From Candidatus Nanopelagicales bacterium (GTDB taxonomy: Bacteria; Actinomycetota; Actinomycetes; S36-B12; UBA10799), in assembly GCA_037046735.1 (NCBI GenBank), contig JBAOHC010000020.1, positions 78,708 through 142,707 of the forward strand: DNA of 64,000 nucleotides. Direction: 5' to 3'. Under the pieces are notes generated by a model. That model made no database searches. It saw nothing but the letters and a program-made list of their open reading frames with translations, and was not told the DNA's origin. Below are positions 11,258 to 43,829 of this stretch, piece after piece. Within the stretch, counting starts at the first letter, position 1, and each line of letters begins with the position of its first letter. A program made the translations under genes and the position numbers.

Positions 11258-11273
11258 CGAAATGTCCCCTTTC

Positions 11274-15706: not shown

Positions 15707-16107
15707 TGCAGCTCCTCCATGGCCGTGTCCGGCCTGACACCGACTGTCACACGGGCGTACGGCTTTTGTCCTCCCCCGAAGGGGGTGGGCCGCCGACGGG
15801 GATGCTGATGGTCTTGGCGGACTAGTCGAGTTGCTGCCTGGCTCAGCATGGCCGAAGGGTTCCAGCCTTGAGCACTGCGATCCCGCGCTATGGAACGCAC
15901 CCACGGGCTCCCTGGCCCACCGTCCGCGGTCGCCCCTCGCCGACTCAGAACAGAGCACTCGCGCGCCATCCACAGCCGGACGCACGGCACAGGTGGACCC
16001 GTTCGTCCGCGGCACAGCGGTTCGGCGCGGCGGAGCCCGAAACGACGAACCGCTGTACCCGAGACGAACGCCTGGGCACCGGACGAACGCCTGGACTCTG
16101 CTGGCCA

Positions 16108-16536
16108 CCTCCGGCGACCTCCTCCCAAGCCCCGCAGAACAACCAATCCCAAAACAAAAGACCCGGCAAGCCTGCCGGGTCTTCCGTTTTGGGGTGAGTG
16201 ACGGGAGCCGTCGCGCCCCTCCGGGACGCTCCTCCCAAGCCCCGCAGAACAACCAATCCCAAAACAAAAGACCCGGCAAGCCTGCCGGGTCTTCCGTTTT
16301 GGGGTGAGTGACGGGAGCCGTCGCGCCCCTCCGGGACGCTCCTCCCAAGCCCCGCAGAACAACCAATCCCAAAACAAAAGACCCGGCAAGCCTGCCGGGT
16401 CTTCCGTTTTGGGTGTGGTGACGGGAGCCGTCGCGCCCCTCCGGGACGCTCCTCCCAAGCCCCGCAGAACAACCAATCCCAAAACAAAAGACCCGGCAAG
16501 CCTGCCGGGTCTTCCGTTTTGGGGTGAGTGACGGGA
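16108..16536. repeat. 110-bp tandem repeat, about 3.9 copies, each = tRNA-His 3' 17 nt + terminator hairpin + GC-rich spacer
   Basis: Unit starts at 16121, 16231, 16341 and 16451. Copies of tggggtgagtgacggga (reverse complement of the tRNA 3' end) at 16190, 16300, 16410 (variant) and the genuine one at 16520. Period not divisible by 3. Confidence 0.9.
16488..16513 (-). terminator. intrinsic terminator of tRNA-His (first of four identical copies)
   Basis: aagacccggca-ggct-tgccgggtctt, an 11-bp stem, followed on the minus strand by ttgtttt. Identical hairpins at 16378-16403, 16268-16293 and 16158-16183. Confidence 0.65.
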
Positions 16537-16596
16537 CTTGAACCCGCGACCACCTGGACCACAACCAGGTGCTCTACCAGCTGAGCTACACCCACC
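16520..16596 (-). tRNA. tRNA-His (GTG)
   Basis: 77 nt GGTGGGTGTAGCTCAGCTGGTAGAGCACCTGGTTGTGGTCCAGGTGGTCGCGGGTTCAAGTCCCGTCACTCACCCCA. Cloverleaf folds by hand: G-1 pairing C73 (His identity), anticodon loop TTGTGGT, TTCAAGT T-loop, encoded CCA. Confidence 0.92.
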
Positions 16597-22617: not shown

Positions 22618-22679
22618 ACCCTTCGTCTCCCCTAAGCGTATCCGTGCGGTAGATTCTGGGCGGAATTCAGTTCACTCTC

Positions 22680-23231
22680 ATGGGGCGGGGGTCGGCCGTG
22701 AGCCTCGGCACATCTCGCGATACAACCGCACGCATTCGCATCCTTGCCTGCGAGCCCGAGCCGCCTGCTGCCCAGCCCCGATCCCGGTCCTGGCCGATCT
22801 GGACACTGGTCGTAGCCACCGCCGTTGCAGGGGCGGGAGTCACGTGGACGCTCCTGCAGCCCAATGCCGAGTCGACGGCCGCTGCGACCCCGCCCGTGGC
22901 GCACGCTGCGATGCCAGCGGCAGCGAAGGGATCCGCGAACATCGCTACCTTCCGCACAAATTCCAGGGTGGCCCGCCGGATGTCCGCGGCCGCCTCGGCC
23001 GACCTACCTGCTGCCGCCCGCTACGCGAAGCGCACCGCCCCCGTCTTCACTGCGCAGGCACCCGCAGCCACCCCCGCAACTGTGAACAACTGGACGGCCC
23101 CCACAACAGTTCAAGCGCCCCAGCCAGCGCCTGCCTCAGCGGCCACGTCCAACAGCCCGCAGAGTGGGCCCTCGGTGACGATCCGAGAAGATGTCAGCCG
23201 GCCCGCCAACCAGACTCCCGGGATGCCCTGA
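22680..23231 (+). CDS. hypothetical membrane-anchored Ala/Pro-rich protein
   Basis: Only long ORF filling this gap; one TM (WPIWTLVVATAVAGAGVTWTLL) then a low-complexity A/P/T-rich tail; no recognisable domain. Confidence 0.4.
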   Translation: MGRGSAVSLGTSRDTTARIRILACEPEPPAAQPRSRSWPIWTLVVATAVAGAGVTWTLLQPNAESTAAATPPVAHAAMPAAAKGSANIATFRTNSRVARRMSAAASADLPAAARYAKRTAPVFTAQAPAATPATVNNWTAPTTVQAPQPAPASAATSNSPQSGPSVTIREDVSRPANQTPGMP

Positions 23232-23239
23232 CTCGAGCG

Positions 23240-24097
23240 TCAGTAGCTGCCGGTCATGAGTTGCGCCGCGACGAACGGGTCGAGTTCGCCGTCGACCACC
23301 CTTTGTGCCAGATCGGGGGCATCGACCATCTGCTCCCGGACGATGTCCACCGCAGTTGACTCGATCTCATCGATGACTCGGCGCAGGTGACGCTGCTCCC
23401 ATGACTCAGTCGGGCGGTGTGCCTCGATGGCGCTCACCAGGTCCCGGACCCCAGCCCCCGCCGTAGCTACGGTCGTGATGACCGGGCGCCCCGTCATCGC
23501 CCTTAGATCCGTCACGGTCCGCCCGATCCCCTCACGGTCGGCCTTGTTGACGACCAGAATGTCGGCGGCGCTGACCCCCTGCGCCTTGGACAGTTGCACG
23601 GCATCGCCGGAGTCCGGGGTCACCATGAGCAGGAGCGTGTCGGTTTGCGCGATAACATCGGGACTTGTGGTGGCGGCCTCGACCAGGATGATGTCGAAGC
23701 GACAGGCGTCCAGAATCCGCAGCACCAAAGGTGTGGTCGGTGCGAGGCCGCCTGGATGACCTCGACTCGCCATCGACCGGATGAACACGTCGGGGTCCGT
23801 GGCCCAATCCTGCAGCCGGATCCGGTCTCCCAGGACAGCGCCGGCACGCTCCGCGCTCGGGTCGATCGTGACGACTGCCACCCGCTTGCCCTCGGCTCGG
23901 AATCGGGCCAACAGCGCAGCGATCAAACTGGACTTGCCGACCGCAGCGGGCCCGGCGATCCCGACGATGTGCGCCTTGCCCAAGTGGCCGACCACCTGCG
24001 CGTTCACGCCCTCGACCCGATTCTCCGCCCGAGTCAGCAGACGCCCCAACGCCCGTCGGTCTCCCCGTTGCGCCTTGGTGAAGAGCGAAGCAGCCAC
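23240..24097 (-). CDS. MeaB/ArgK-like G3E GTPase (divergent)
   Basis: P-loop GIAGPAAVGKSS, DPSAERAGAVLGDRIRL, NKAD present; the position of the ETVGVGQSE switch reads VEAATTSPDV. Confidence 0.75.
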   Translation of the reverse strand: MAASLFTKAQRGDRRALGRLLTRAENRVEGVNAQVVGHLGKAHIVGIAGPAAVGKSSLIAALLARFRAEGKRVAVVTIDPSAERAGAVLGDRIRLQDWATDPDVFIRSMASRGHPGGLAPTTPLVLRILDACRFDIILVEAATTSPDVIAQTDTLLLMVTPDSGDAVQLSKAQGVSAADILVVNKADREGIGRTVTDLRAMTGRPVITTVATAGAGVRDLVSAIEAHRPTESWEQRHLRRVIDEIESTAVDIVREQMVDAPDLAQRVVDGELDPFVAAQLMTGSY

Positions 24098-24172
24098 AGC
24101 GGGAGTTTACCCTGCGTTCATCTGTAGGTCGCGTGTGCCAGACGGGTCGGCCCATGTGTCGAGCGCGCCAGA

Positions 24173-24222
24173 AATGGGCGGTTGGTGCGACACGCCGTGG
24201 CGAATCGCAACGAATGCCCATT
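24173..24222. repeat. imperfect-palindrome intergenic element, copy C
   Basis: aatgggcggttggtgcgacacgccgtggcgaatcgcaacgaatgcccatt folds into a ~24-bp hairpin with 4-5 mismatches; shares aatgggc / tgcga / gcc-cggcg / tcgca blocks with copies A and B. Confidence 0.55.
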
Positions 24223-24263
24223 GCGCACCCCGGGCAACGGCGCGTCCTCGAGACCCGATCCGG

Positions 24264-25448
24264 TTAGGGCACGGTCACGATCAGTGCGTCACCTTGACCG
24301 CCGCCCCCGCAGAGGGCCGCCGCACCCACGCCGCCCCCGCGACGTTTGAGTTCCAGCGCCAGGGTCAGCACCACACGGGCACCCGACATCCCCAGCGGAT
24401 GGCCCAGCGCGATGGCGCCGCCGTTGACGTTGACAATGTCCTCATCCAGGCCGAGCTCGTCGGCGCTGGCCAGCCCGACCGCCGCAAACGCCTCATTGAT
24501 CTCCACCAGGTCGAGGTCCGAGACGGCGATGCCCTGCTTGTCGCACGCGAGCTTGATGGACTCGGCAGGCTGCAGGTGCAGCGATGCATCAGGCCCTGCC
24601 ACGACGCCATGGGCACCGATCTCTGCCAGCCAGGTGAGGCCCAGCTCTTGCGCCTTCTCCTTGCTCATGACGACCACGGCTGCCGCCCCATCGGAGATCT
24701 GTGACGCGTTGCCGGCGGTGATGCTGCCGTCCTTGGCGAAGGCAGCGCGCAGGCGCCCCAAGCTCTCCGCGGTGGTGTCCGCACGGACCCCTTCATCGGT
24801 CGCGAAGACGATCGGGTCGCCCTTGCGCTGCGGGATCTCGACGGGGACGATCTCCTCGGCGAATGCGCCGTTCTTCTCCGCGATCGCGGCCAGCTGGTGG
24901 GAGCGGGCGGCGAAGGCGTCCTGGCGCTCGCGGGTCACGGCCGGGTACTTGCTCAGGTATCCCTCGGTGGACTCGCCCATCGCGCACTGATCGAAAGCGC
25001 AGGTCAGGCCATCAAAGGCAAGTGAGTCGATGACCTTCCAGTCGCCGTACTTGACACCTTCGCGCGATCCCATCAACAGATGGGGGGCGTTGGTCATCGA
25101 CTCCATGCCACCTGCGACGACGATCTCGTACTCGCCAGCGCGGATCAACTGGTCGGCCAGGGCAATCGCATCCAGACCCGACAGGCACACCTTGTTGATG
25201 GTGAGCGCGGGGACGTCCATCCCGATGCCGGCCTTCACGGCCGCCTGTCGAGCGGTGATCTGCCCCGTGCCGGCCTGCAGCACGTGACCCATGATCACGT
25301 AGTCCACCTGGTCGGCGGACACCCCCGACCGTTCCAGTGCCGCCTTGATGGCGAAGCCGCCAAGGTCCGCGGCGGAGAAACCCTTGAGTGAACCGAGCAG
25401 GCGCCCCATCGGGGTGCGGGCTCCGGCGACGATCACATTTCCAGCCAT
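24264..25448 (-). CDS. acetyl-CoA C-acetyltransferase (thiolase II)
   Basis: 550-aa ORF trimmed to ATG 25448 after AGGAGG; 394 aa; [11 protein letters not shown] (nucleophile Cys), [26 protein letters not shown]. Confidence 0.9.
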
Positions 25449-25496
25449 GCGGACCTCCTGAGTGTGCGGCGTGCGGCTTAATGCCACGATAAACCC

Positions 25497-25919
25497 ATGG
25501 GATTTGTGACTGCGATCGACCATGTGGGACTGGCTGTGCGCGACCTCGACCAGGCCATCGCGTTCTACCAGGACGCGTTCGGCATGCAACTCGTGCATGA
25601 GGAAGTGAACGAGGAGCAGGGCGTCCGGGAAGCGATGATGGCTGTTGGGGACAGCGGCTCCTGCATACAACTGCTGGCGCCGTTGAAGGACGACTCCCCC
25701 ATCGGCAAGTTCCTGTCTCGCAACGGCGAGGGCATCCAGCAGGTGGCCTACCGCGTGAGCGACATCGACGTGGCCGCCGACGAGTTGCGGGAGGCCGGCG
25801 TGCGGATGCTGTACGAGCACCCCAAGCGCGGCACCGCGGGTTCCCGGGTCAACTTCGCCCACCCGAAGGACTGCGGCGGCGTTCTGATCGAACTGGTGGA
25901 GCCGGGCGAGGGGCACTGA
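25497..25919 (+). CDS. mce: methylmalonyl-CoA epimerase (VOC/glyoxalase fold)
   Basis: 140 aa; [18 protein letters not shown]...[12 protein letters not shown]...[14 protein letters not shown] pattern of actinobacterial epimerases. Confidence 0.8.
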
Positions 25920-25942
25920 CCGTCAAGCCATCCCGGCAGCCT

Positions 25943-25989
25943 GTTGCCAAAGGTGGGCGTTCGAGGATCGAACGCCCACCTTTGGCAAC
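25943..25989. terminator. perfect 22-bp hairpin, bidirectional terminator candidate
   Basis: gttgccaaaggtgggcgttcga-gga-tcgaacgcccacctttggcaac between the convergent mce and DUF11 paralog 1 genes. Confidence 0.7.
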
Positions 25990-25994
25990 TCCGG

Positions 25995-27969
25995 CTACGG
26001 ACGCACGATGTACGTCTTCTGTTGCACGAACGGCTTGTAGAGGTTCGTTCCCTTGGCGGTCTGCCGGATCCGCACCTTCATCGGGTTGGCGCCGATCACC
26101 TTGACCCGCAGGAAGCCGTTCTTGCGGATCACCTTGCAGTAACTCGTCTCACCAGCAGCAGCGGCCTTGAGCGGCCGGCACGTGACGCTGGTGCGGATCT
26201 TCTGACCCTGATCGGTGCGTCCGGTCTTCACCTTGTTCGGAGATGTCGGCAGCGGCGCGGCCGACTGCGCCTCCCGCCGCACTGCCATCGTCGCCGTGGC
26301 CGTGTTGTTGGCCAGGTTCGCCTCGTAGGAGGTGGTGGCCACCGTCGCCTCGTTCGTCACCTGCGGCACTCCGCCAGTCACCAGCGCGGTGACGTCGATC
26401 TGCTCGTTGGCCTGAGTTGCCAGCCCTGTGCGGGTACAGGTGAACTGCCGCACGCCCGTTCCGCACGTCCAACCGGTCCCTGAAGCGGATACCAACTCCT
26501 GTCCCACGGGCAGGGTGTCAGTGACCGTGATGGTGCCAGCGTCGGAGACAGAACCCACGTTGCTCACGCCCAACCGCCACGTGGCCTGCTCCCCAACAGT
26601 TGCCGACGAGGTCACGGCCGCCTTACTAATCGCCAGATCCACGGGCGTGGTGTTCGCGGTGATCGCGGTCGTGTTGTTCGCCAGGTTCTGCTCGAAGGAG
26701 GACGTGGCAACCGTGGCGGTGTTGCCGAACTCGGCTTGTGGCCGCGCTGACCTTGGCAACCACAGCGATCTGCTGGCTGGCCGCCAATGGCAGACCGGCG
26801 CTGGTGCAGGTCACGACCTGACCAGCCACCGAACATGTCCAACCCGTCCCCGTGGCCGAGACGTACTCCAAACCGCTGGCCAGGGTGTCCGTCACCGTGA
26901 CAGCGCCGGCGTCAGGGATGGTGCCCACATTGGCCACCGTCAACGTCCAGTCAGCGTTCGTCCCAGGCTGGAAAGTGCCCGATCCGGTCTTCGAGATCGC
27001 CAGGTCAACCGGCGTCACGTTGATGCGGGCCGTCGCGGAATCATCGGCCGGGGTGCTGTCCGGCGTCGCGGAGGACGCCGTGACCGTCACGTCGTAGAAG
27101 CCCACCGTGGCTGGCTTGGCTGTTGCCACCTCGAGGACGAGTTGGGGCGCAGTGGCGCCGACAGGGAACAGAACCGCCGGGGGGCCTTCGTTCACAGCCC
27201 CTGGGGGCGCGGGGACCCAGGTACATTCCACGTCCTGGCCGGTTGCCGTGCAGTTCCATGGGGAAGAGCCGCTGACGTATGTCACACCCGCGGGCAACGT
27301 GCTGCGCACCGTCACCGGAGTGGACGCATCGGAGGGCCCGACGTTGGTGATGCCGACAGGAATCGTCGTGGTGTCACCGGGATTCACTGGCGCTGCCGGA
27401 TGCGTGGCCGTGACCGCAAAGTCAGCCTCGTTGGTGACCTCAACCTCTGCAGTCACCTCAGGCAGATCCGAATCCTCCACCGGATCACAGACCGTCCCGG
27501 GCCACGTCATGGTGGCCAGAGTCTGCGGATCTGACACGGGCGGATGGCCAAGCCCGGCACAGTTCACGTAGACGCCTGCCCTCGTCGAGGCCGGCGCTGT
27601 CGTCGTCACGGTGACGGTCACCGACGAGTCTTTGGGAACCAGCGGCTGGAAGCACCAGAACTCGGTGTCGCTGCCGGTGCGCTTCTGGCACTGCATGGCC
27701 GGGCTGGACGTGGTGATCTCACCGATCACCAGACCATCATCCATCCGGTCGGCGAAGAACGCGGGAAGCGGCAACAGCGGGTTCAGATTGGTGATCTCGA
27801 CCGTGAACTCAGTGGCTTGACTGCCGCCAGCGACGATCGATGCCACTCCGGTGCGCACCTTGGCGATGGTGATACCCGTGACGTTTGCCTGGGCCGGCGT
27901 CACGGTGACCACGGGCGCGAGAAGCAACGCGCCTGCCACCAAACCCGCCCCCACCCGTCGAATGCCCAT
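25995..27969 (-). pseudogene. secreted DUF11-repeat surface protein, paralog 1 (frame interrupted near 26743)
   Basis: ORFs 26626-27969 and 25995-26759 join as ...IAVVAKVSA/PQAEFGNTATVATSSFEQNLANN if one base is removed at gcggcc (26741-26745). RBS GGGAGGGGG. RR signal peptide MGIRRVGAGLVAGALLLAPVVTVTPAQA. DUF11-type repeats (VDLAISK...W.L.V.NVG...DAG..TVTDTL..G...VSA.G.GWTC). Basic C-terminal module ending KTYIVRP. Confidence 0.75.
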
Positions 27970-28114
27970 TACGACCCCCTCCCAGGGTTACAGCGCACAA
28001 TGTTCGGTACATCTTGAACAATAGCCCCGAACCAGGGCCCGAGGCTCGCAAAGGGGAGAAACGCCGCTGACCCCACCCGAAAGGGGTGGAGCCAGCAACA
28101 CACCATGCGAGTTC

Positions 28115-29768
28115 TTACGGTTTGACGATGTAGGTCTTGCGCTGCAGGAACGGCTTCAACCGGTCGTTGCCCTTCGCCGTCTGCACCACCGTCACCTTCA
28201 TCTTCTGCGAGCCGAACACCCGCACCCGGACCACACCATCGGCCCGGCGCACCTTGCAGTAGCTGACCTCACCGGCCACCGCCGACTTCACCGGAGTACA
28301 CCGCACCCGCGTCGTCAACTTCTGCCCCTCATCGGTCTTGCCGGACAGAATCCGCCGCGGCGACGGCGGCAACGCCGACGCCGTCTGCTCCACACGGCGC
28401 ACCGACACGGACTTCTCGGCAGAGTTGTTCGCGGTGTTCTTCTCATACGAGGTCGTCGCCACAACGACCTTGTTCAGCGCCGCGCCGCGCTGGGTCATCT
28501 TCGACACGACGACGATGTCCTCAACAGCGCCAACCGGCAGGACGGCGTGGGTGTGTTCACACGTCACCTTCTGGCCCTGCGCCGAGCAAGTCCATCCTTC
28601 GGCGGTGGCGGACTTGAACACCGCACCAGCCGGCAACGTGTCGGTGACCGTCACCTTCCCGGCATCCTCGATCGTGCCCACATTGGACACCTGCAACGTC
28701 CACGTCGCCTCGTCGTCGACGACCACCGGCGAACCCGCCGACTTCGACACCGCCAGATCCACCGGCGTCATCGGGATCGCAGCCGTCGCCGTCGCATCAG
28801 CCGGCGTCGGATCCTTACGTTGCTGGTCGCTACCGCCGTGATCCCGTAGTCGGCCTGCAACGCCGGGCTTCGGCGTCTTGACCGTGACAGGCAACGGGAT
28901 GAAGCCTGGTGTGAGCGCCGCCTGCGACGTCTGTGCCGCGTCGAGCGGCGTCCAGAGGCACTCGACCTTCTGGCCGGTCGGCGTGCAGGCCCACGATCCG
29001 GGCCGGCAGACACCAACGTGACCCCATCGGGCAGGGCAAAACTGAGTCTCATGAAGTGCAAGGCCAGCGACGGACCCAGATCCTTGAGCGTGAACGACAC
29101 GTCGCGTCCTTGCCCGGTTCGGTGTGCGCCGCGTCCGTTGCCGTCAAGCGAAGATCCGCCAACGCCTTCACGTCCACCGACGTGCTCTTCTCCGTGTAGA
29201 TGGGCGGGGTCGGACTCGGTTGCGGTGCCAGGTCCTGTGGTGCCCTCGGCGGAGTGAGACCGCAGAATTCCCTGGGTGTGGCACCCAAGACCGTCGCGAT
29301 GCTGCAGAACGATTTGGTCGACGTGGGCACCCAGGGCTCGGCGAGGTACGTCGCCACAACAGTGAGCGAGGCTTTAGCGGGCAGACCCACGTCCGGCTCG
29401 TTTTCGGTGAGAGCCTGCGGTTGCGGCGCCTCTTTTCCGGTCATACAGACGAACTGATTCGGATCGGTGGGACTGAGCATGCACTCGGTGCTCGGCGTCA
29501 GTTCCTTGACCGAGACGTTCTGCAGAGTCAGCCCGCTGGCGGGAACACCCCCGATCGCCACAGGGATCGTGAAGTTGTTCGGATTGGTGACGAGCATCGT
29601 GAACTCGGTGCCCGTCGCGCCACCGGCGATGATCGGATTAGCTCCCGTGACCGTCACCGTCAGTTCCGGCGCGATGGCAGTGACCGCCTGCCCTGGCGAT
29701 CCCAGCCCCACAAGCCCCACGGCAAGTGCCCCCGTTGCCAACGATCCCACGAGTCTGCGCACTCTCAT
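28115..29768 (-). pseudogene. secreted DUF11-repeat surface protein, paralog 2 (about four frame interruptions within 28.81-29.10 kb)
   Basis: ATG 29768 after GGGGAGGG; signal peptide MRVRRLVGSLATGALAVGLVGLGSPGQA. Pieces in ORFs 29049-29837, 28768-29100 and 28115-28894, plus an open start-less frame (PGSWACTPTGQKVECLWTPLDAAQTSQAALTPGFIPLPVT), are collinear with paralog 3. C-terminal 86 codons are identical in DNA to paralog 3. Confidence 0.7.
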
Positions 29769-29832
29769 GACAAATCCCTCCCCTTGTTCCGTAACCCACC
29801 ACCGATATCGGCACAAACCCGCCGAGCCTTGA

Positions 29833-29871
29833 CCCACAACAAATGGCGGCCCGGATTTCTCCGGACCGCCA
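29833..29871 (-). terminator. intrinsic terminator of DUF11 paralog 3
   Basis: tggcggtccgga-gaaa-tccgggccgcca (12-bp stem, one G.U) followed by tttgttgt on the minus strand, 16 nt after the stop codon. Confidence 0.6.
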
Positions 29872-29886
29872 CTTGAAGTGTTGCGA

Positions 29887-31539
29887 TTACGGTTTGACGA
29901 TGTAGGTCTTGCGCTGCAGGAACGGCTTCAACCGGTCGTTGCCCTTCGCCGTCTGCACCACCGTCACCTTCATCTTCTGCGAGCCGAACACCCGCACCCG
30001 GACCACACCATCGGCCCGGCGCACCTTGCAGTAGCTGACCTCACCGGCCACCGCCGACTTCACCGGAGTACACCGCACCCGCGTCGTCAACTTCTGCCCC
30101 TCATCGGTCTTGCCGGACAGAATCCGCCGCGGCGACGGCGGCAACGACGCAGCCGTCTGCTCAAGGCGGCGCACGCGCACGCTGGCCGAGGCACTGTTGT
30201 TCGCAGTGTTCTTCTCATACGACGAGGTGGCCACGGCCACATTGTTCGTGAAGGCCCCGCCGCTGGGCATCGTGGCGATCACCACCAACTCCTCGGTGGC
30301 ACCCACCGGGAAGCCAGCATGAGTATGAGTGCAGGTGAGCTTCTGCCCCTCCGCCGCGCACGTCCAGCCATCACCGCTCGCCGACGTGAACACCGCACCA
30401 GCCGGCAACGTGTCGGTGACCGTCACCTTCCCGGCATCCTCGATCGTGCCCACGTTGGACACCTTCACCGACCAGGTCGCCTCATCATCGACAAGCACCG
30501 GTGAGCCCACCGACTTCGTCACCGCCAGATCGACCGGCGTCACGTCAACGGTGCTCGTCGCGCTGGAATTGGCGGGTTTGCTGTCCGCGGTCTTCGAGAC
30601 GACCGTGGCAGGCACGTCATAGTGGGCGACCAGACCCGGCTTGGCGGTCTTAACCGTCCAGACCAGGTCCGGAGCACTACTAGCCGGGCCGAGCAGAGGC
30701 AGGGGGAACGCAAGCGGACCTGCGGCGGCATCTGCCAGCAGAGTGAACGTGCACTCGACCACCTGGCCGTTGGGCACACACGTCCAGGGTGCGGCCGCCG
30801 AGACGAATGAGAGACCGGGCGGGAGGGTGCCGGTCAGCGTCAACGGCAGCGTCGCGCTCGACGGCCCGTCGTTCTTCACCTTCCAGGTGATCTTGGCGTC
30901 AGCGCCAGGATCCGTCTGCCCGGCGTTTGACCCGGTCAGCACGAGGTCGGCGTCGTTGATGACGTCAACGGGCGCGAGCGTCTCGGGATTCAAGATCTCT
31001 TCAGCCGCGGCCTGCGGTGCCTCAACCGGGATTTCGACATCGCAGTTGTACGACGACATCTGCCCCTCTGGGGTTAGTGCCCTGGGATTGAAGACAGCGG
31101 CACAGTTGTTCAGGGTCCCAGGCCGTACTGGCGCGGGAGACGTGGCGGTGACCGTGTACGAGACGGAAGCCCCCGATGCGATGTTGACAGCACCAGGCTG
31201 GGGTGCGGTGAAGATCATCGGCACCCTGCAGTAGAAGCTCACATCATCGATCTTGGTGCACTCGAAGTCGGGCGAAGACGTCGTGATGGTGTCAATCACG
31301 AGGCCCTCGTCGAGTCGGTCAACGACCCATCCGCCGGCCTCGTCCAGGCTGTTGTTCGTCACAACGACCGTGAACGTCGTCTTCTGGCCCGACCCTGCAG
31401 TGATCGGGCTGGCACCGGTGCGTTCATTGGACAGCACCAGGCCACCACCACCATTCGCCTGCGCCGGGATGGCCACCCCCAGCCCCGCGACCACCAAAGC
31501 GGCAGTGGTTACCCCCGCCGCGACTCTTCGCATTCTCAT
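29887..31539 (-). CDS. secreted DUF11-repeat surface protein, paralog 3 (intact)
   Basis: ORF 29887-31551. ATG 31539 or 31533 preferred because GGGAGG lies at 31542-31547. Signal peptide MRMRRVAAGVTTAALVVAGLGVAIPAQA; N-terminal Cys-containing domain; DUF11 repeats (VDLAVTKSVGSPVLVDDEATWSVKVSNVGTIEDAGKVTVTDTLPAGAVFTSASGDGWTC); basic C-terminal module ...SYCKVRRADGVVRVRVFGSQKMKVTVVQTAKGNDRLKPFLQRKTYIVKP. No LPXTG motif and no C-terminal TM. Confidence 0.8.
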   Translation of the reverse strand: MRMRRVAAGVTTAALVVAGLGVAIPAQANGGGGLVLSNERTGASPITAGSGQKTTFTVVVTNNSLDEAGGWVVDRLDEGLVIDTITTSSPDFECTKIDDVSFYCRVPMIFTAPQPGAVNIASGASVSYTVTATSPAPVRPGTLNNCAAVFNPRALTPEGQMSSYNCDVEIPVEAPQAAAEEILNPETLAPVDVINDADLVLTGSNAGQTDPGADAKITWKVKNDGPSSATLPLTLTGTLPPGLSFVSAAAPWTCVPNGQVVECTFTLLADAAAGPLAFPLPLLGPASSAPDLVWTVKTAKPGLVAHYDVPATVVSKTADSKPANSSATSTVDVTPVDLAVTKSVGSPVLVDDEATWSVKVSNVGTIEDAGKVTVTDTLPAGAVFTSASGDGWTCAAEGQKLTCTHTHAGFPVGATEELVVIATMPSGGAFTNNVAVATSSYEKNTANNSASASVRVRRLEQTAASLPPSPRRILSGKTDEGQKLTTRVRCTPVKSAVAGEVSYCKVRRADGVVRVRVFGSQKMKVTVVQTAKGNDRLKPFLQRKTYIVKP

Positions 31540-31709
31540 CGAACCTCCCATTGTGTGTTGCAGCCCCGCGGACGAGCATCAGGCTAGCGCCGCAGATGGT
31601 ACAGACGCGCGATCTGCACTAAATGACGGTCATTTCAGGCCGACCCCTCTACCGCCCGTGGCACAGCCACCCATTAGCGTGCAACTAGGTTCACGAATGG
31701 GAGCGGATC

Positions 31710-33044
31710 ATGCAGCACATCCTCGACGCCATCATGAACGAGGCCCCGGCGGCCGAGTTCGCGTCCATTGAGATTCCTCAGTCCTACCGAGCGATCACTG
31801 TTCACAAGGAAGACGTGGACATGTTCGCCGGACTGCCGACGCGCGAGAAGGATCCCCGGAAGTCGCTGCACCTCGATGACGTTCCGGTTCCCGAACTCGG
31901 CCCAGGCGAGGCGCTTGTGGCCGTGATGGCCTCGTCGATCAACTACAACACCGTCTGGACCTCGATCTTCGAGCCGGTGTCGACGTTCGGCTTCCTCGAG
32001 CGCTACGGCCGCTCACATCCGCTCGCCAAACGCCATGACCTGCCCTACCACATCATCGGCTCCGACCTGGCTGGTGTCGTACTGCGCACCGGGCCGGGGG
32101 TCAACGCGTGGGGCCCCGGCGACGAGGTGGTCGCCCACTGCCTGAGCGTGGAGTTGGAGAACCCCGCAGGCCACAACGACACGATGATGGACCCCGAGCA
32201 GCGGATCTGGGGCTTTGAGACCAACTTCGGCGGTCTGGCCGAAATCGCGCTGGTGAAGTCCAACCAGCTCATGCCCAAGCCTGCACACCTCACATGGGAA
32301 GAGGCCGCGGCGCCTGGGCTTGTGAACTCCACCGCCTACCGCCAGTTGGTCTCGCGCAACGGCGCTGGGATGAAGCAGGGCGATGTCGTGCTGATCTGGG
32401 GGGCATCGGGTGGTCTGGGTTCCTACGCCACCCAGTACGCAGTCAACGGCGGCGCGATCCCCGTGTGTGTGGTGTCCTCCCCCGAGAAGGCCGACATCTG
32501 CCGAGCCATGGGCGCGGAGTACATCATCGACCGCAACGCAGAGGGCTACCAGTTCTGGAAGGACGAGCACACCCAGAATCCGAAGGAATGGCAGCGCCTC
32601 GGCAAGAAGATCCGTGAGCTCACGGGCGGCGAGGACGTCGACATCGTCTACGAGCACCCTGGCCGCGAAACGTTCGGAGCCAGTGTCTACGTCACGAAGA
32701 AGGGTGGCACCATCGCCACCTGCGCCTCGACCTCCGGCTACATGCACGAGTACGACAACCGCTACCTGTGGATGAACCTGAAGCGGATCATCGGCTCGCA
32801 CTTCGCGAACTACAAGGAGTCGTATGAGGCCAACCGACTCATCGAGAAGGGCATGATCCACCCCACCCTGAGCAAGTCCTTCCCGCTTGAGCAGACCGGC
32901 CAGGCCGCCTATGAGGTTCACCGCAATGCTCATCAGGGCAAGGTCGGGGTTCTGTGCCTGGCGCCCGAGGAGGGTTTGGGTGTGCGTGACCCGGGCAAAC
33001 GTGCGAAGTTCGAGAAAGAAATCAACCGCTTCCGGAACGCATGA
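31710..33044 (+). CDS. ccr: crotonyl-CoA carboxylase/reductase
   Basis: 444 aa, near-collinear with Streptomyces Ccr (SYRAITVHKEDVDMFAGL, DKDPRKSLHLDDVPVPELGPGEALVAVMASSINYNTVW, RIWGFETNFGGLAE, IWGASGGLGSYA, HQGKVGVLCLAPEEGLGV). Confidence 0.9.
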   Translation: MQHILDAIMNEAPAAEFASIEIPQSYRAITVHKEDVDMFAGLPTREKDPRKSLHLDDVPVPELGPGEALVAVMASSINYNTVWTSIFEPVSTFGFLERYGRSHPLAKRHDLPYHIIGSDLAGVVLRTGPGVNAWGPGDEVVAHCLSVELENPAGHNDTMMDPEQRIWGFETNFGGLAEIALVKSNQLMPKPAHLTWEEAAAPGLVNSTAYRQLVSRNGAGMKQGDVVLIWGASGGLGSYATQYAVNGGAIPVCVVSSPEKADICRAMGAEYIIDRNAEGYQFWKDEHTQNPKEWQRLGKKIRELTGGEDVDIVYEHPGRETFGASVYVTKKGGTIATCASTSGYMHEYDNRYLWMNLKRIIGSHFANYKESYEANRLIEKGMIHPTLSKSFPLEQTGQAAYEVHRNAHQGKVGVLCLAPEEGLGVRDPGKRAKFEKEINRFRNA

Positions 33045-33433
33045 TGCTCAACGACAAGGCCAAGGCACTGCTCGACAAGCCGAAGCAGTTCGCCACCATC
33101 TCCACGATCGAACCCGACGGCCGACCCCAGAGCAGTGTGGTCTGGTACGTCCGCGATGGCGACGACGTGCTTGTCTCAACGGTCGCGGATCGGCGTAAGC
33201 ACAAGAACATGGTGCGCGATCCGCGGGTGACGCTCCTGGTCTACGACGCCGAGAACCCTTATGAGTACGTCGAGATCCGCGGTCGGGTCCAGATGACCAC
33301 CGAGGGCGGCCGGGAACTGATCGACGACCTGGCGCGCGCCTACATGGGTGCGGACCGGTACACCATGGACGACGGCACGGACAACGTGCGCGTCGTCTGC
33401 CGGATCGTGGCTGAGAAAGTCGTCAGCCGCTAG
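33041..33433 (+). CDS. PPOX-class (pyridoxamine 5'-phosphate oxidase-like) probable F420-dependent protein
   Basis: 130 aa; ATGA overlap with the ccr stop; ...ATISTIEPDGRPQSSVVWYVRDGDDVLVST...KHKNMVRDPRVTLLVYD...YVEIRG pattern. Confidence 0.75.
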   Translation: MMLNDKAKALLDKPKQFATISTIEPDGRPQSSVVWYVRDGDDVLVSTVADRRKHKNMVRDPRVTLLVYDAENPYEYVEIRGRVQMTTEGGRELIDDLARAYMGADRYTMDDGTDNVRVVCRIVAEKVVSR

Positions 33434-33436
33434 GCG

Positions 33437-33847
33437 TCAGCGGGCAGCGAACCAGGCGGATGCCTTGGCATTCCACAGCAGGTACAGCACGAAGGCGGCG
33501 ATGATCGTCAGCACGACCGCGCCCCACATGAAACTGCTGCCCCAGAGCATCACGATCGCAAAACCGCCGAGCACGAACCGGACCATCATCAGCAGGCTGA
33601 TGAGCAGCCGCGCGAACTTGCTCCCGTTGCCCAGCGCCGACGCGAACAAGGCGATCACCAGGCCCAGGACGATCGAGATCCAGGCTGTCAGGGTCGCGGT
33701 GTCAGGGTTGACCCCAGCGTCAACGAGTGTCGCATCACTGGCGAACAACAGGATCACGCCGTCGATGATCGTCACGATCGCCACCAACCACGTGAGAATG
33801 ACGACGAAGGAAACGCTGGCAGGCCGCTTGGGCAGTTCGGAAGTCAT
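33437..33847 (-). CDS. hypothetical 4-TM membrane protein
   Basis: 136 aa; four hydrophobic segments; no recognisable motif. Confidence 0.55.
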   Translation of the reverse strand: MTSELPKRPASVSFVVILTWLVAIVTIIDGVILLFASDATLVDAGVNPDTATLTAWISIVLGLVIALFASALGNGSKFARLLISLLMMVRFVLGGFAIVMLWGSSFMWGAVVLTIIAAFVLYLLWNAKASAWFAAR

Positions 33848-33900
33848 GGCGCCGAATGTAGCGTGACGAGGGTCCGGATTGGATGGCGGCGCGCCAGGCG

Positions 33901-35640
<1,740 letters not shown>

Positions 35641-35889
35641 CCTTCCAGGGTACGCAGCACGCCGATCCCCTCCGGCGCGGGCTCGAGCGGTGATGAATGT
35701 CGATGGCGGGTGACGGTTCTGGTTTGTCAGGGGCCCACTGGTCGCCCATCGCTCACAGATGCCCTGCTGCCCCCGCCGCACGAGGCAATGTGGGAAACAA
35801 GCCTCTAGGAGGTCGATACCCCACATTGCCACCCGCCACGCATGGCCAGAACGCGTCTAGGTCGCCTCAGCCGGCAACCGAGCGGAGCC

Positions 35890-36624
35890 TCACGGAAGCC
35901 AGTCGCGCAGGATCTCCAGCAGCACATCGTTGGCCGCCGCCGGGTCCTCAATCACGCTCAAGTGCCCGGCACCCGGGATCTCACGGCCCACAGCTTGCGG
36001 CATGGCATCAAGCATGATCTGCTGCTCCGCCCGCGGGGAGAGCGTGTCCTCGCTGCCCCAGACCACAGCCGCGAGACCGTCATAACTGCGCAGCACAGGC
36101 ACCGAGTCCAGGCGGTCGGCCATCGTTCGCTGGGCATTCGCCACGGCTGCCGGCGACGCGTCGTCGATCATCTGCCGCACGGCACCCACGACCTCCGGCC
36201 GACTCTCGCGCGTGGTGGCCCCCAACAGGTTGGGCAGAAGTTCGTCGGCGAGTCCGGCCGTATCCGGCGCGGCGTCCATACGCTGGGCCATCTTGAAGCG
36301 AACCCGGCGGGCTTCCGGGGCGTCGGCCGTGGCCTTCGTGTCCACGAAGATCGCCCCGGCGACCTTGTCCGGAGCCTTGCGCAGAACCTCCATCAGCAGG
36401 TAGCCCCCCATGGACACCCCTACGAAGACGGCAGGCTTGTTCAGCCGCGTCAGGACGGGAGTCACCATCTGCAGCAGTGACGGCGAGCCCGGCAGCGCGG
36501 AGTCACCAAAGCCACCCACATCGGGGGCGAAAACGGTGTAGCCCACGCCCCGCAGGTACTCGATCTGACCGTCCCAGAGGTGATGATTCACCGGAAAGGC
36601 GTGCAGCAGAACCACGGCGGTCAT
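35890..36624 (-). CDS. alpha/beta hydrolase
   Basis: ATG 36624 (MTAVVLLHAFP...); nucleophile elbow GVSMGG; C-terminal GAGHL. Confidence 0.75.
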   Translation of the reverse strand: MTAVVLLHAFPVNHHLWDGQIEYLRGVGYTVFAPDVGGFGDSALPGSPSLLQMVTPVLTRLNKPAVFVGVSMGGYLLMEVLRKAPDKVAGAIFVDTKATADAPEARRVRFKMAQRMDAAPDTAGLADELLPNLLGATTRESRPEVVGAVRQMIDDASPAAVANAQRTMADRLDSVPVLRSYDGLAAVVWGSEDTLSPRAEQQIMLDAMPQAVGREIPGAGHLSVIEDPAAANDVLLEILRDWLP

Positions 36625-36652
36625 CGGCCGGACCCCCGATGCGTCAACCGGG

Positions 36653-37081
36653 TCACGAAGTGGGGGGCGTCTCGGGGCCGCCGCTCGGCGTCGGTGCAGC
36701 GTCGACGACCTCATCGGTGGTCGACGGCGCCTCTTCGGTGGCCTTGGTCACGGTCTTCTTGAGATCAGCCACCGGTGCCACGTCGGTGTCGGGCTGCTCC
36801 ATGACCTGCCACTCCTCGGCCGCCTTGCGCCGCTTCTTCAGCACGATCACCAGGCCCACGGCGACACCAGCAACCGCCAGACCGATGGCGATCTTGGGCA
36901 GTAGGTGCCGATTCTCCTCGATCTTCTGCTCGGCAACCTCCAGCGCGCGATCAGCCTGTGCCAACACTTTCTCCGTATCCAGGACCGTGGTGTCGGCGAC
37001 CTTGATCACGCCGTCCCACTTGTCCAAGCGGTTTTCCCAGTGCTCGATGTGGTCGCGAACGTTGTCGATATCGATAGTCAT
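36653..37081 (-). CDS. hypothetical single-TM protein with N-terminal coiled coil
   Basis: ATG 37081; 142 aa; helical N-terminus, TM IAIGLAVAGVAVGLVIVL, acidic/Pro-rich tail. Confidence 0.5.
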   Translation of the reverse strand: MTIDIDNVRDHIEHWENRLDKWDGVIKVADTTVLDTEKVLAQADRALEVAEQKIEENRHLLPKIAIGLAVAGVAVGLVIVLKKRRKAAEEWQVMEQPDTDVAPVADLKKTVTKATEEAPSTTDEVVDAAPTPSGGPETPPTS

Positions 37082-37126
37082 GACTCCAGCCTTTCTGATC
37101 GGGACATGATTCGGCAAGTCACCCAC

Positions 37127-37885
37127 CTACGGCATCGCCGAAAGTCCCCCGTCGAGGATCAACTCCTGCCCCGTCATGAAGCTCGAGGCGTCGGAGGCAA
37201 GGAACACCGCACCCGCGGCGATCTCGGGCACCTGCCCCCAACGCTGCATCGGCACTCGGGCCAGCACCCCCGCGCCATTGTCGGGAGCGGCACGCAGGAA
37301 CTCGGTGAGATCGGTCTCGATCCAGCCCGGAAGCAATGTGTTGACCCGCACTCCGGCCCACGCCCACTCCACGGCGACCGAGCGGGTCAGGCTCATGATC
37401 GCCGCCTTGGCCGCACCGTAGTGGCTCATCAGGGGCGCACCCCGCATCCCTGCCACGCTGGCCACGTTGATGACAGATCCCGACTTCTGCTCCAGCAGCG
37501 TCGGACCCACCGCCTGCAGCATGTGCACCGTGGAGTCGACGTTGAGCTTCTGGGTCTTCTCCCACCCGGAGAAGCGCATGCCCACAACGGGGCTGGAGAA
37601 CGAGTTGCCGCCGGCGTTGTTGACCACGATGTCCAAGCCCCCGAGTTCCCTGATCGCGGACTGAGCGGCGGCGTGCACGGCGGCCGGGTCGAGCACGTCG
37701 GCGACGGTGACGACCGCCATGCGCCCAAGACCCTCGATCTCCTGGGCGACCTCGGTGAGCATCTCCTCGTTGCGGGCAAGTAGTGCTACGTCGGCCCCCT
37801 GCCGTGCGTATTCCACGGCGATCGCCCGCCCAATACCCCGGGAGGCGCCGGTGACGATGGCCCTCTTGCCTGACAACTGACTCAT
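37127..37885 (-). CDS. SDR family oxidoreductase (FabG-like)
   Basis: TGASRGIG cofactor motif, NNAG, catalytic S...YGAAK; ATG 37885 overlaps the stop of the upstream hydrolase gene (ATGA). Confidence 0.85.
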   Translation of the reverse strand: MSQLSGKRAIVTGASRGIGRAIAVEYARQGADVALLARNEEMLTEVAQEIEGLGRMAVVTVADVLDPAAVHAAAQSAIRELGGLDIVVNNAGGNSFSSPVVGMRFSGWEKTQKLNVDSTVHMLQAVGPTLLEQKSGSVINVASVAGMRGAPLMSHYGAAKAAIMSLTRSVAVEWAWAGVRVNTLLPGWIETDLTEFLRAAPDNGAGVLARVPMQRWGQVPEIAAGAVFLASDASSFMTGQELILDGGLSAMP

Positions 37886-38610
37886 AGGTCGCTCCACTTC
37901 TCCATTGGCCCGTCCCACTCGGTCGGCAGGACGGTTACTTCACCGGTGACTGTTGTGACGATCTGGTTGAGTACCGTGCTGGCCGCCCGCTCCCCCACCC
38001 AGAGGTGCTTGGCGGCCTGCACGGGTATGAACTGCACCTGCGGGGCGCGCGCGAAATGAGGTCGCGCTGCCAACGGCGGCAGGTAGTCGTCGTCCTCTGG
38101 GACCATGACCACCAACGCCCGGCCGTCGCGGCCCCAGCGATCGATGTCGGCGTCCGTGGCGTACCGCAGCGGCGGGCTGAGCAGGATCGCCCCGCGCACT
38201 GCGGGAAGCAATCCGTGGCGCAGCACCACATCCGTGCCGAAACTCCAGCCCACCAGCCAGATGTTGGGCAGGTCCGCGACGAATTCAACCGCAGCCTGCA
38301 GATCCAATCCCTCGGCGGTACTCGCGTCGAACTGTCCCTCAGAGGTACCCGCAGCGCTTGACGTCCCACGGGTGTTGAAACGCAGGACAGCAATATCGGC
38401 CAAGGCCGGCAGTCGCCAGGCCGCCTTCCGGTAGATATGCGAGTCCATCATGCCGCCATGCGTGGGCAGCGGGTGGACGGTGACGAGGGTGGCCACCGGG
38501 TCAGCCAATGGCAGCGCCAGTTCACCGACAAGTCGCAGGCCGTCGGCCGTCGTGAGTGTGACCGGGTCGCGGCGGGCGGGCAGCACCGCGTTCGCACCGA
38601 TCCGATCCAC
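37882..38610 (-). CDS. alpha/beta hydrolase
   Basis: 242 aa; nucleophile elbow GWSFG; translationally coupled to the SDR gene. Confidence 0.7.
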   Translation of the reverse strand: MDRIGANAVLPARRDPVTLTTADGLRLVGELALPLADPVATLVTVHPLPTHGGMMDSHIYRKAAWRLPALADIAVLRFNTRGTSSAAGTSEGQFDASTAEGLDLQAAVEFVADLPNIWLVGWSFGTDVVLRHGLLPAVRGAILLSPPLRYATDADIDRWGRDGRALVVMVPEDDDYLPPLAARPHFARAPQVQFIPVQAAKHLWVGERAASTVLNQIVTTVTGEVTVLPTEWDGPMEKWSDL

Positions 38611-38658
38611 CCAAGCAGCCTATGCGGTGACTGGCGCCGCGGTGAACCCCGCCGGGGC

Positions 38659-39651
38659 TCAGCGCCCTGTTATCTGCACTGGCTTGGCTCGGTTCAGCGG
38701 TGGCAGGGTTCCCCGCTCGGAGGTCACCCGGTTACGGCCCGCCGCCTTGCTCTGGTACATGAGGCGATCGGCGCGATCCAACGCCTCCTGCCAGGTCTCG
38801 TCCGGTTGCACCATGGTCGCCCCGATCGAGACGGTGACGGTGACCCGCATACCGTCGATCGTCAGCCATGACTCCTCGACCAGCATTCGCAAGCGCTCAG
38901 CCGCCAGCTCCAGGTCCGCCGCTGAGGCCAGGCGCACCACCGCCAGGAACTCCTCCCCACCCCAGCGCACCGGCCAATCATGGGGACGCAGACCGTGCGC
39001 GATCGTTTTGCCCACCATCCGCAGGGCGTCATCACCGACCGAGTGGCCCCACGTGTCGTTCACGCTCTTGAAATGATCCACGTCGATGAAAAGCAGCCCG
39101 ACCGACGTCCCGGCCGCGACCATGGGTTCGATGTGCGTCTGCACAAAGCGGCGGTTGCCCAACTCGGTCAGGGGATCGAGGAACGAGGCGTCAAGATCGG
39201 ATGCGGTGCTGGTCGCCAGATCCGCCGTGTCGCGGCAATGGAAAACCTCCACTGAACCGACGATCTGCCCGAGGTCGTCCCGGATGGGGCTGGCCTTGAC
39301 CGTGACCGGCACGCGATGGCCATCGCGGTGATGCAGGTACACCTCCGCCTCCCGCAGTCGGCCGTCGTTCATCACGCCAGCCAGTGGGCAGCCATGTGTG
39401 CACAGCTGGTATCCGCCTTCAGTGACGTGACGCAGGATGCCCTCCGAACAGGAATGACCGGTGACAGCCGCGGCGGGATATCCCGTGATCTGTTCAGCGC
39501 CCGCATTCCAGTAGGTGATACGCCGATCCAGATCGACGAAGTACACGCCGTCCTCGACCTGCTCCAGGATCGTGCGGTAACCGACTCCAGCACCACTACC
39601 TCCCAACCTTCGGGTACCAGTATGCTCCCGGCGCTCGTAGTTTGTATTCAT
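38659..39651 (-). CDS. PAS-domain diguanylate cyclase (GGDEF)
   Basis: 501-aa ORF trimmed to ATG 39651; PAS-like VYFVDLDRRITYWNAGAEQITGY with His/Cys cluster HSCSEG...C-x3-C; GGDEF domain with DHFKSVNDTWGH and active-site GGEEF. Confidence 0.85.
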   Translation of the reverse strand: MNTNYERREHTGTRRLGGSGAGVGYRTILEQVEDGVYFVDLDRRITYWNAGAEQITGYPAAAVTGHSCSEGILRHVTEGGYQLCTHGCPLAGVMNDGRLREAEVYLHHRDGHRVPVTVKASPIRDDLGQIVGSVEVFHCRDTADLATSTASDLDASFLDPLTELGNRRFVQTHIEPMVAAGTSVGLLFIDVDHFKSVNDTWGHSVGDDALRMVGKTIAHGLRPHDWPVRWGGEEFLAVVRLASAADLELAAERLRMLVEESWLTIDGMRVTVTVSIGATMVQPDETWQEALDRADRLMYQSKAAGRNRVTSERGTLPPLNRAKPVQITGR

Positions 39652-39779
39652 GACAACCACTGGGGTGAGCCGGCCGTCGCTCGGCCGGTACCTTGGCCAC
39701 CAAAGACGCTGGGGCACAGATCGCCTACGGCGAGGGCGATGATCGTTTCTGGTGTATCGCGACCGGGACCTGCGCAAGG

Positions 39780-41863: not shown

Positions 41864-41956
41864 ACCGCCCAGTCTGGCAAAGGGGTTTTCGGCCACAATG
41901 AGTGGGTGTGGCACGCCCGACCCCTCTTTGACGAGGACATCCCCGAAGTGTTGACC

Positions 41957-43393: not shown

Positions 43394-43829
43394 CAGGCGA
43401 CCACCTTGAAGAGGGTCATCAGCGTGGCGACCACGGCTGTGCCCAGAGACCAGAGCAGGGCTCGCGTGCCCACCCACGTGTAGACGAACAGCAGCACCGT
43501 CAGCGCGATCATTGCCGCGGTGACAGCTACCTCCAGCGAGCCACTGACCAGCCATCCCAGAGCCGCTGCGATTACCAGCACGGTGGCCGGCACGAGGCCC
43601 ACCGAGGCGTTCAGGGCCTCCGTGGTCAACGCCGCGCGGTCCACGGAACCAACCATCCGGCGGGTCAGCAGATGGGCCCAGAACCGCGCGATCACCACAC
43701 CGACGGCGGCCACAACACGACGAACGTGAACGCCGACAGCGAGTCGACGTACCCTTTGGCCGTGGCAGCGACGGCCACCGCGAGCAGCGTCAATGAGGCC
43801 GAAATGACTGCCGAGATACGCGTGTTCAC
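43393..43829 (-). pseudogene. hypothetical 4-TM membrane protein, frame interrupted near 43715
   Basis: GTG 43829 (GTGA overlap with the upstream dehydrogenase stop) gives [38 protein letters not shown]. It continues in ORF 43393-43713 ([12 protein letters not shown]...) after a 1-nt gap; the stop overlaps the nucS ATG. Confidence 0.5.

Follow-up and report, generated by a model that had tools for sequence, protein, structure and literature searches.

What holds a secreted repeat protein at the cell surface when it has neither a sortase signal nor a lipobox is the question raised by a locus in a 64,000-nucleotide stretch of DNA (the window) from an uncultured wastewater actinobacterium labelled 'Candidatus Nanopelagicales' (contig JBAOHC010000020.1, positions 78,708 to 142,707). 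Between positions 25995 and 31551 the minus strand of the window carries three paralogous coding regions, with stops at 25995, 28115 and 29887 and starts at 27969, 29768 and 31539 that agree with the first residues of homologues. The locus is best explained as an array of tandem genes whose products are short, secreted surface proteins of a fibrillar-adhesin-like kind, each ending in the same basic module. The initial annotation had counted three tandem genes on one strand; strand and boundaries stand, but only one of the three, paralogue 3, is open in the window, paralogues 1 and 2 being frameshifted. The coding regions are as follows:

29887 to 31539, minus strand: paralogue 3, an intact open reading frame (ORF) of 550 amino acids (aa), the sole open paralogue in the window.
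28115 to 29768, minus strand: paralogue 2, with four frame changes located by three-frame translation and an indel map against intact orthologues; its module lies at 28118-28393.
25995 to 27969, minus strand: paralogue 1, the version with three CLIPPER (DUF11) domains, with one nucleotide inserted near 26738; its module spans 25998-26273.

The protein encoded by paralogue 3 has this layout:

aa 1-28: signal peptide.
aa 29-170 (31030 to 31455, minus strand): D1, a variable N-terminal immunoglobulin (Ig)-like tip domain with two conserved Cys pairs.
aa 186-335: D2.
aa 336-458 (30166 to 30534, minus strand): D3, a canonical CLIPPER/DUF11 domain, in which the Pfam match covers residues 341-458 and profile positions 1-114 of 114.
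aa 459-550 (29890 to 30165, minus strand): the C-terminal module, an LPxSP linker followed by a basic beta-sandwich of six strands that reaches to the last residue, delimited by alignment and AlphaFold2 (AF2).

An AF2 model of the whole protein, built from a 29-sequence family alignment (predicted local distance difference test, pLDDT, 84.7), has four beta domains, which span aa 26-150 (D1), 186-333 (D2), 338-457 (D3) and 472-548 (the C-terminal module).

Conservation in the protein is highest in the module. The last 92 residues of the protein were aligned without a gap over about 30 clusters of the core family and the three paralogues, with 23 invariant columns. This bore out the earlier claim that a basic two-Cys module is common to all three proteins and ends exactly at the C-terminus. 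Folded alone, the module gave a confident six-strand beta-sandwich (AF2, pLDDT 89). The family signature is a beta-sandwich of about 80 residues with a T-x-x-G-Q-[KR] loop, usually a Cys pair, an isoelectric point (pI) above 10 and a C-terminal position. Against the family profile the three copies scored E values of about 1e-32 to 1e-33, each ending at the stop codon, and the window holds exactly these three.

No described family could be matched to it. The module gave no hit in Pfam or NCBIfam even at E ≤ 10, precomputed Pfam match lists from a newer release that already contains PF27609 had nothing on the module stretch, and neither a narrow nor a broad profile found a match among PDB sequences. 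Foldseek searches with the model of the module gave a best E value of 0.5 in the PDB (template modelling (TM) score 0.36) and of 0.03 in BFVD. A homologue search with the broad module alignment returned only short unnamed fragments. The idea that the module is a degenerate CLIPPER repeat was tried and rejected (hhalign probability 0.4%). The description of the module as unassigned therefore holds across all these checks, none of which turned up an anchoring or binding domain already described. As judged from its sequence, the module is a previously undescribed domain family.

To see how widely it occurs, a module profile was searched against 1.84 billion representative proteins at E ≤ 1e-3. 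This gave 110 clusters, and 157 proteins were examined once cluster members were included. In about 150 of these 157 the module ends within 5 residues of the C-terminus. The modules are strongly basic (median pI 11.2, net charge +16), whereas a median pI of 4.6 was obtained for the remainder of the protein. The Cys pair is kept in 109 of 155 modules, while 29 belong to a Cys-less variant. An N-terminal hydrophobic signal was found in 73 of 96 full-length module proteins.

The passengers in front of the module are mutually unrelated and of more than 12 types. They include giant CLIPPER proteins of up to 2261 aa, vWA proteins with SpaA_2 and DUF5979, BNR propellers, RCC1 proteins with ASH-type Ig domains, YncE-like propellers, right-handed beta-helix proteins, IgGFc_binding with Big_1, FG-GAP with TIG, DUF285, FN3 with He_PIG, a GH64 glucanase and a PLD-like enzyme. 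In one metagenomic protein of 492 aa (P0136), which is the only case of internal copies seen, a signal peptide and a Pro-rich stretch are joined to three modules in tandem and nothing else. The members come only from metagenomes and metagenome-assembled genomes, labelled Actinomycetota, Micrococcales or Nanopelagicales, and their habitats are wastewater, soil and sediment. A scan of GTDB found 7 loci, but with patterns specific to the core family, so that taxonomic breadth is underestimated by it. On one wastewater contig (L022, GC content 65.7%), an FN3 protein of 1023 aa (4530-7619) and an RCC1 protein of 944 aa (9977-12832) both end in the Cys-less module, and an extracytoplasmic function (ECF) sigma factor/YCII gene pair lies between the two genes.

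The ends of homologous passengers bear on what the module may do. Distant DUF11 relatives of paralogue 3 (P0032-P0037) end in an LPXTG-like motif, a hydrophobic helix and an Arg-rich tail, in that order. In the same way, the close homologues of a vWA/SpaA_2 protein (P0222) all end in the module, whereas its distant homologues (31-39% identity for P0274, P0281 and P0282) end in LPDTG, LPVTG, LPNTG or LATTG, a transmembrane helix and a basic tail. Since homologous passengers end in either the module or an LPXTG-type signal, the module is, by this comparison, the occupant of the sortase-signal slot.

The three proteins of the window have no such signal of their own. The regular expression L[PA]x[TSA]G found no match in paralogue 3 or in repaired paralogue 1, and the C-terminus is a soluble basic beta domain in place of the LPXTG-type helix and tail. 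No lipobox ([LVI][ASTVI][GAS]C) was present in the first 40 residues, and there is no Cys before residue 94. The initial annotation was right on both counts. Searches of Pfam for known anchors (Gram_pos_anchor, SLH, LysM, GW, choline-binding, PG_binding, CHU_C and Por_Secre_tail) gave none at E ≤ 1 with the whole proteins or at E ≤ 10 with the module alone.

All three signal peptides end in AQA or GQA, as had been noted, and all three contain a twin arginine. The arginine pair is replaced in orthologues by KR, VR or SR, or is missing (P0009, P0010, P0012, P0014), and only one basic residue is conserved across their signal peptides. The emphasis on an RR signal peptide thus applies to the window proteins only and carries no Tat meaning. 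Because the twin arginine is not conserved in orthologues, Sec export would be the simpler reading.

DUF11 (PF01345, TIGR01451) was the sole family recognised when the whole paralogues were compared with Pfam and NCBIfam. For PF01345 the scores were 113.5 bits for paralogue 3, 96 and 67.7 for the two halves of paralogue 1 and 58 for the C-terminal half of paralogue 2 (cut-off 24.6), while the N-terminal piece of paralogue 2 gave no match; TIGR01451 scored 52.3 bits against a cut-off of 24. The two or three DUF11-type repeats described at the outset are therefore well founded. The label 'of unknown function' that went with them has been overtaken: DUF11 was renamed CLIPPER in 2025 and characterised as an isopeptide stalk domain of fibrillar adhesins (Costa et al., Protein Sci 2025, PMC12617251). 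The crystal structure (PDB 9IFR) shows a CnaA-like Ig domain in which Asp catalyses the formation of an intramolecular isopeptide bond between Lys and Asn (PMC12617251).

In D3 the corresponding triad (K342, D376 and N432) is invariant in 29 sequences, with a spacing of 34/90 as against 33/91 in 9IFR (PMC12617251), and D3 is thus predicted to form the Lys-Asp-Asn isopeptide bond. D2 has the CLIPPER sequence pattern but lacks the isopeptide Lys and Asp. Both domains are all-beta with pLDDT above 90 in the full-length model, as expected of the Ig-like sandwich of CLIPPER, and Foldseek matched that model to tandem Ig-like arrays, including the C-terminal domains of AgI/II. Paralogue 1 has one canonical CLIPPER unit more than paralogue 3.

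The N-terminal D1 had been called a divergent domain with paired cysteines. The Cys pairs are real (C94/C104 invariant, C146/C166 nearly so) and it is the least conserved region, but D1 proved to be a further Ig-like domain: the N-terminal 170 or so residues of paralogue 3, scanned alone, scored 30.1 bits against Pfam DUF11. This weak score, seen in paralogue 3 only, was its sole match in Pfam, and no adhesive-domain family was hit. From tip to tail the mean pairwise identity rises steadily: 27% in D1, 41% in D2, 47% in D3, 59% in the linker and 65% in the module.

Taken as a whole, the evidence gives a little better than an even chance that the module is a non-covalent cell-envelope anchor at the C-terminus of CLIPPER-stalk surface proteins. 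The protein would be exported by its Sec-type signal peptide. The module would then bind an anionic component of the envelope, a wall polymer or a lipid, non-covalently and largely by electrostatic attraction, and the isopeptide-stabilised stalk would project the variable, fast-evolving, disulfide-braced D1 tip outward. The module would thereby do the job that the LPXTG/sortase signal does in the homologous proteins. This model is preferred because of the conservation gradient, the C-terminal position, the charge contrast, the portability of the module, its substitution for LPXTG and the tandem copies. The protein with three tandem modules (P0136) argues by analogy in the same direction, in that binding modules occur in this way and cleaved signals do not. 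The suggestion in the initial annotation that the module is a candidate new wall- or ligand-binding domain is thus consistent with what was found, in that the module is unassigned and the indirect evidence fits anchoring or binding, the binding itself being predicted from sequence. The bolder proposal that it is a new lineage-specific envelope anchor of uncultured Actinomycetota, which replaces sortase and LPXTG on dozens of unrelated proteins and forms a new class of Gram-positive display, falls a little short of an even chance.

Several points weigh against anchoring. The module is without a characterised homologue, and a basic beta-sandwich could serve just as well for binding extracellular DNA, polyphosphate or the acidic exopolymers of sludge flocs. 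No candidate gene for synthesis of the ligand is linked to the locus. A Pro-rich linker that could span the wall lies upstream of the module in only 22 of 119 family members. Endolysins of actinophages might be expected to carry the module if it binds the wall, but no resemblance to phage wall-binding domains was found in searches made without the broad module alignment (tblastn of 50,697 phage records gave 0 hits, none was confirmed in IMG/VR, and the BFVD value, given above, is not significant); this outcome says little either way. A sulfatase-family ORF (13352-16573, 1073 aa) was considered as an LtaS-type lipoteichoic acid synthase, and hence a source of ligand, and was rejected as it matches arylsulfatase models. 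Elsewhere in the window (57921-59042, minus strand), a WecA/TagO-type GlcNAc-1-phosphate transferase (glycosyltransferase family 4) is encoded between glyA and the atp operon and might bear on the ligand. Enzymes of this type usually catalyse the first step in making linkage units for wall polymers and are widespread in bacteria.

The same charge could serve a domain that binds matrix or substrate, namely extracellular DNA, polyphosphate or acidic exopolysaccharide, and places adhesins and enzymes in the floc or biofilm in the manner of a carbohydrate-binding module. The extreme positive charge, the GH64 and PLD-like hydrolases among the passengers, the tandem copies in one protein and the origin of all members in wastewater, soil and sediment metagenomes would all suit such a role. 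Substrate-binding modules, however, are found at either end of a protein, while a strict C-terminal position and substitution for LPXTG are typical of anchors, and the rise in conservation from tip to tail suggests a conserved partner on the cell itself. The LPXTG substitution and the fixed position argue, though less strongly than the points against a cleaved signal, against a pure matrix-binding role, which is judged rather unlikely. A C-terminal sorting signal resembling the type IX C-terminal domain (CTD), recognised by dedicated machinery and then removed or covalently attached, is less probable again. An 80-residue beta-sandwich at the extreme C-terminus of many unrelated cargos with N-terminal Sec signals is what such a signal looks like, and a conserved linear motif, LPxSP or [LP]PxR[IV], does lie just upstream of the module. 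Yet the module matched neither Por_Secre_tail, CHU_C nor any sorting-signal model in NCBIfam. A cleaved signal is also argued against by the protein with tandem copies, by the lack of a conserved partner or processing gene in the neighbourhoods examined and by the host, as Actinomycetota are monoderm and have no outer membrane to cross.

The module might instead have no specific partner at all, being one more structural Ig-like domain on proteins released into the medium. The generic Ig-like similarity that was all Foldseek returned is in keeping with this, but a domain without a partner would hardly be the most conserved part of the protein, fixed C-terminally and strongly charge-biased, nor is it related to the stalk domain, and it is found on more than 12 types of passenger. 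The prospect of this being correct is as slim as that of a sorting signal. Anchoring of the envelope type accordingly remains the favoured role for the module.

The array proteins can be compared with three kinds of known system. Sortase-anchored CLIPPER fibrillar adhesins (PMC12617251; PMC8286594) share with them the signal peptide, a variable N-terminal domain, tandem CLIPPER stalks, the Lys-Asp-Asn triad and paired cysteines, as well as the polarity of tip, stalk and base. Instead of LPXTG, a transmembrane helix and a basic tail, however, the array proteins have a folded basic domain of about 80 residues. They are also short (550-657 aa, with 2-3 stalk units), their D2 lacks the isopeptide residues, and the tip matches no known adhesive domain. 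When the fibrillar-adhesin criteria of Monzon et al. (2021) were applied, neither a known adhesive domain at the tip nor a known anchor was found. The closest functional analogy for the module is offered by GW modules (InlB/Ami, which bind lipoteichoic acid), SLH, CWB2, LysM, choline-binding repeats, SH3b and WxL, which are portable, often terminal, often basic and sometimes tandem. The module has no match to these in sequence (Pfam) or structure, and differs from them in being nearly always single-copy and strictly C-terminal and in having been found so far only in uncultured Actinomycetota. The type IX CTD (Por_Secre_tail, PF18962/TIGR04183; CHU_C) is likewise a beta-sandwich of about 80 residues at the extreme C-terminus of unrelated proteins with Sec signals. 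It belongs to Bacteroidota, which are diderm; the module has no match to PF18962, PF13585 or TIGR04183, and it occurs in tandem copies. Extreme basic charge, such as the module has, is not known to be a feature of type IX CTDs.

The three genes add new members to a known kind, the CLIPPER stalk proteins. The family of the C-terminal module is new, and the module is credible as a new type of anchor. Surveys have found that nearly half of fibrillar-adhesin-like proteins have no known anchor and have predicted new anchor domains (PMC8286594). With its confident fold, its clear signature and the LPXTG position that it takes in homologues, the module is a well-delimited candidate for one of these missing anchors. 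If it is a true anchor, it would explain surface display in abundant uncultured wastewater actinobacteria and provide a new display tag for such cells. The significance is limited by the narrow distribution of the family and by the predicted nature of the anchoring role.

The coding state of the three genes was then considered. All three are intact in close relatives, and each paralogue is individually preceded by a Shine-Dalgarno-like sequence. The paralogue 3 protein is identical on 14 public contigs, including NCBI GCA_964268605.1, and its 90% cluster contains a member of 550 aa (MEI2785085.1), on comparable contigs, named 'DUF11 domain-containing protein [Candidatus Nanopelagicales bacterium]'. 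Paralogue 1 appears in the window as two overlapping ORFs (26626-27969 and 25995-26759). Deletion of one base near 26738 restores a protein of 657 aa, the same length as in relatives, and intact 657-aa orthologues are present at four other loci (L001, L013, L014 and L015). In paralogue 2, for which intact orthologues of 549/550 aa served as the reference, the four frame changes lie within 300 nt (-1 near 29101, -1 near 29001, +1 near 28868 and -1 near 28817) and there is also a net in-frame change of +3 at 29046-29051. None of the frameshift sites in paralogues 1 and 2 is a homopolymer run.

Further frameshifts were located in the window by checks of ORFs and of Pfam coverage, a GC3 (third codon position) frame plot of the whole window being too noisy. 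These, and a break in sequence identity, are:

5507 to 8681, plus strand: IcmF (fused isobutyryl-CoA mutase/GTPase), with a frameshift near 6050; the B12-binding domain is in ORF 5507-6265 and the GTPase and mutase in 6075-8681.
8764 to 10220, minus strand: aldehyde dehydrogenase, with two frame changes, near 10110 and 9960; the Pfam match begins at profile position 77.
29950 to 30010, no strand: the identity break, inside the repeated 3' module of paralogue 3, located by a 250-nt divergence profile against two of the public contigs (L013 and L014) and an extended comparison.

Identity was compared over 22661-39768. Between 39768 and about 30000, several public short-read contigs match the window at 100% identity; below this point divergence jumps to 2-25% over paralogue 2, paralogue 1 and mce, and beyond MeaB identity is about 92%. 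The break reflects either recombination or the assembly of a chimera. The divergent half holds every frameshift found, whereas the genes of the identical half, such as the atp operon, murA, glyA and prfA, are all full length. As the window is a mosaic and all frameshifts, including those in IcmF and aldehyde dehydrogenase, fall in its divergent half, the state of paralogues 1 and 2 is as likely to stem from consensus errors, or from a chimeric join at the repeat, as from pseudogenisation. The possible inactivation of these two paralogues is also among the points against the favoured model.

A second assembly of the same species (L013) has an independent 7-nt deletion in paralogue 2 (region 8495-8501), which points to real decay. 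Paralogue 2 is moreover absent from two loci (L015 and L019) and present in two copies at another (L020). Disrupted, missing or doubled in this way, it can clearly be dispensed with and is not stable in nature. A metagenome scan for the frameshift allele of paralogue 1 found no independent copy with the rather short pattern used; 113 stretches matched, of which 1, on a contig already compared, was homologous, and it did not have the extra base.

The position of the array was examined by synteny. Five other species (L006-L010) have a single family member in the same slot, in the order ABC-F, PNPOx, ccr, family gene, mce, thiolase and MeaB (with no MeaB detected in L006). Relative to the window, protein identity is 89-95% for ccr and thiolase but 42-56% for the surface protein. 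Since five other species carry a family member there, the position between ccr and mce is ancestral and not a recent insertion. The description of the cassette as wedged between acyl-CoA genes and interrupting them had therefore to be abandoned. The block is conserved in relatives, where its annotation goes no further than 'DUF11 domain-containing protein', so its novelty is not removed by any functional annotation already made.

A recent mobile or foreign insertion into an acyl-CoA operon would account for genes functionally unlike their neighbours and bounded by hairpins. It is nonetheless extremely improbable: the GC content of the array equals that of its flanks, the slot is filled in the five other species, no integrase, transposase or direct repeats flank the array, and ccr and mce are on opposite strands and so do not form one operon.

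Within the species of the window there are two, three or at least four copies in the slot, and across strains and species the number is 1 to at least 4. Over the last 300 nt paralogues 2 and 3 are 95% identical, while paralogues 1 and 2 are 63% identical. The former value indicates that the 3' module has probably been shaped by gene conversion or recent duplication, and the similarity would provide the substrate for deletions and for the identity break. The array is best seen as evolving through duplications and deletions, allele replacement, and gene conversion of the 3' module. With its variation in copy number, its hypervariable tip and its homogenised tail, it is a compact case of birth-and-death evolution of surface antigens.

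Between the genes and at the ends of the array lie the following features:

25943 to 25989, no strand: a perfect 22-bp inverted repeat, between the convergent mce and paralogue 1.
28062 to 28100, minus strand: a hairpin 3' of the paralogue 2 stop, with a 17-bp stem (folding free energy, dG, -31 kcal/mol, z -3.9).
29840 to 29875, minus strand: a hairpin 3' of the paralogue 3 stop, with a 16-bp stem followed by AUUUGUUGU (dG -37 kcal/mol, z -7.2).
31540 to 31709, no strand: the divergent intergenic region between paralogue 3 and ccr, from the ORF map; the arrangement is the same in the five other species.

The 22-bp hairpin on one side of the array was found as first described. On the minus strand it folds with a dG of -44 kcal/mol (z -8.4), on the plus strand with one of -43.5 (z -7.8); no U-run follows it on either strand, and it is probably a bidirectional terminator. 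An intrinsic terminator had also been assigned to paralogue 3; the strong hairpin is there, but it was not called by a strict terminator scan. No sigma-70-like promoter was called in 31540-31709.

Acyl-CoA genes of the neighbourhood (IcmF, MeaB, thiolase, mce and ccr, at 6036-8681, 23240-25919 and 31710-33044) are spread over both strands and are not gathered in one operon, and two 3-hydroxyacyl-CoA dehydrogenase genes lie further off (40190-42304 and 43826-44680). No functional link between the array and the acyl-CoA genes was seen. At 33437-33847 on the minus strand, between the PNPOx-family gene that adjoins ccr and ABC-F, a predicted membrane protein of 136 aa is encoded which has no match in Pfam or NCBIfam; it recurs at the same place in close relatives and in one of the five other species (L010). 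Finally, a 110-nt unit that is repeated 3.9 times with 98% identity (16108-16536) comes after tRNA-His (16520-16595, minus strand); the array of repeats overlaps the 3' end of the tRNA and could represent reiterated copies resembling an attachment site or an assembly artefact.

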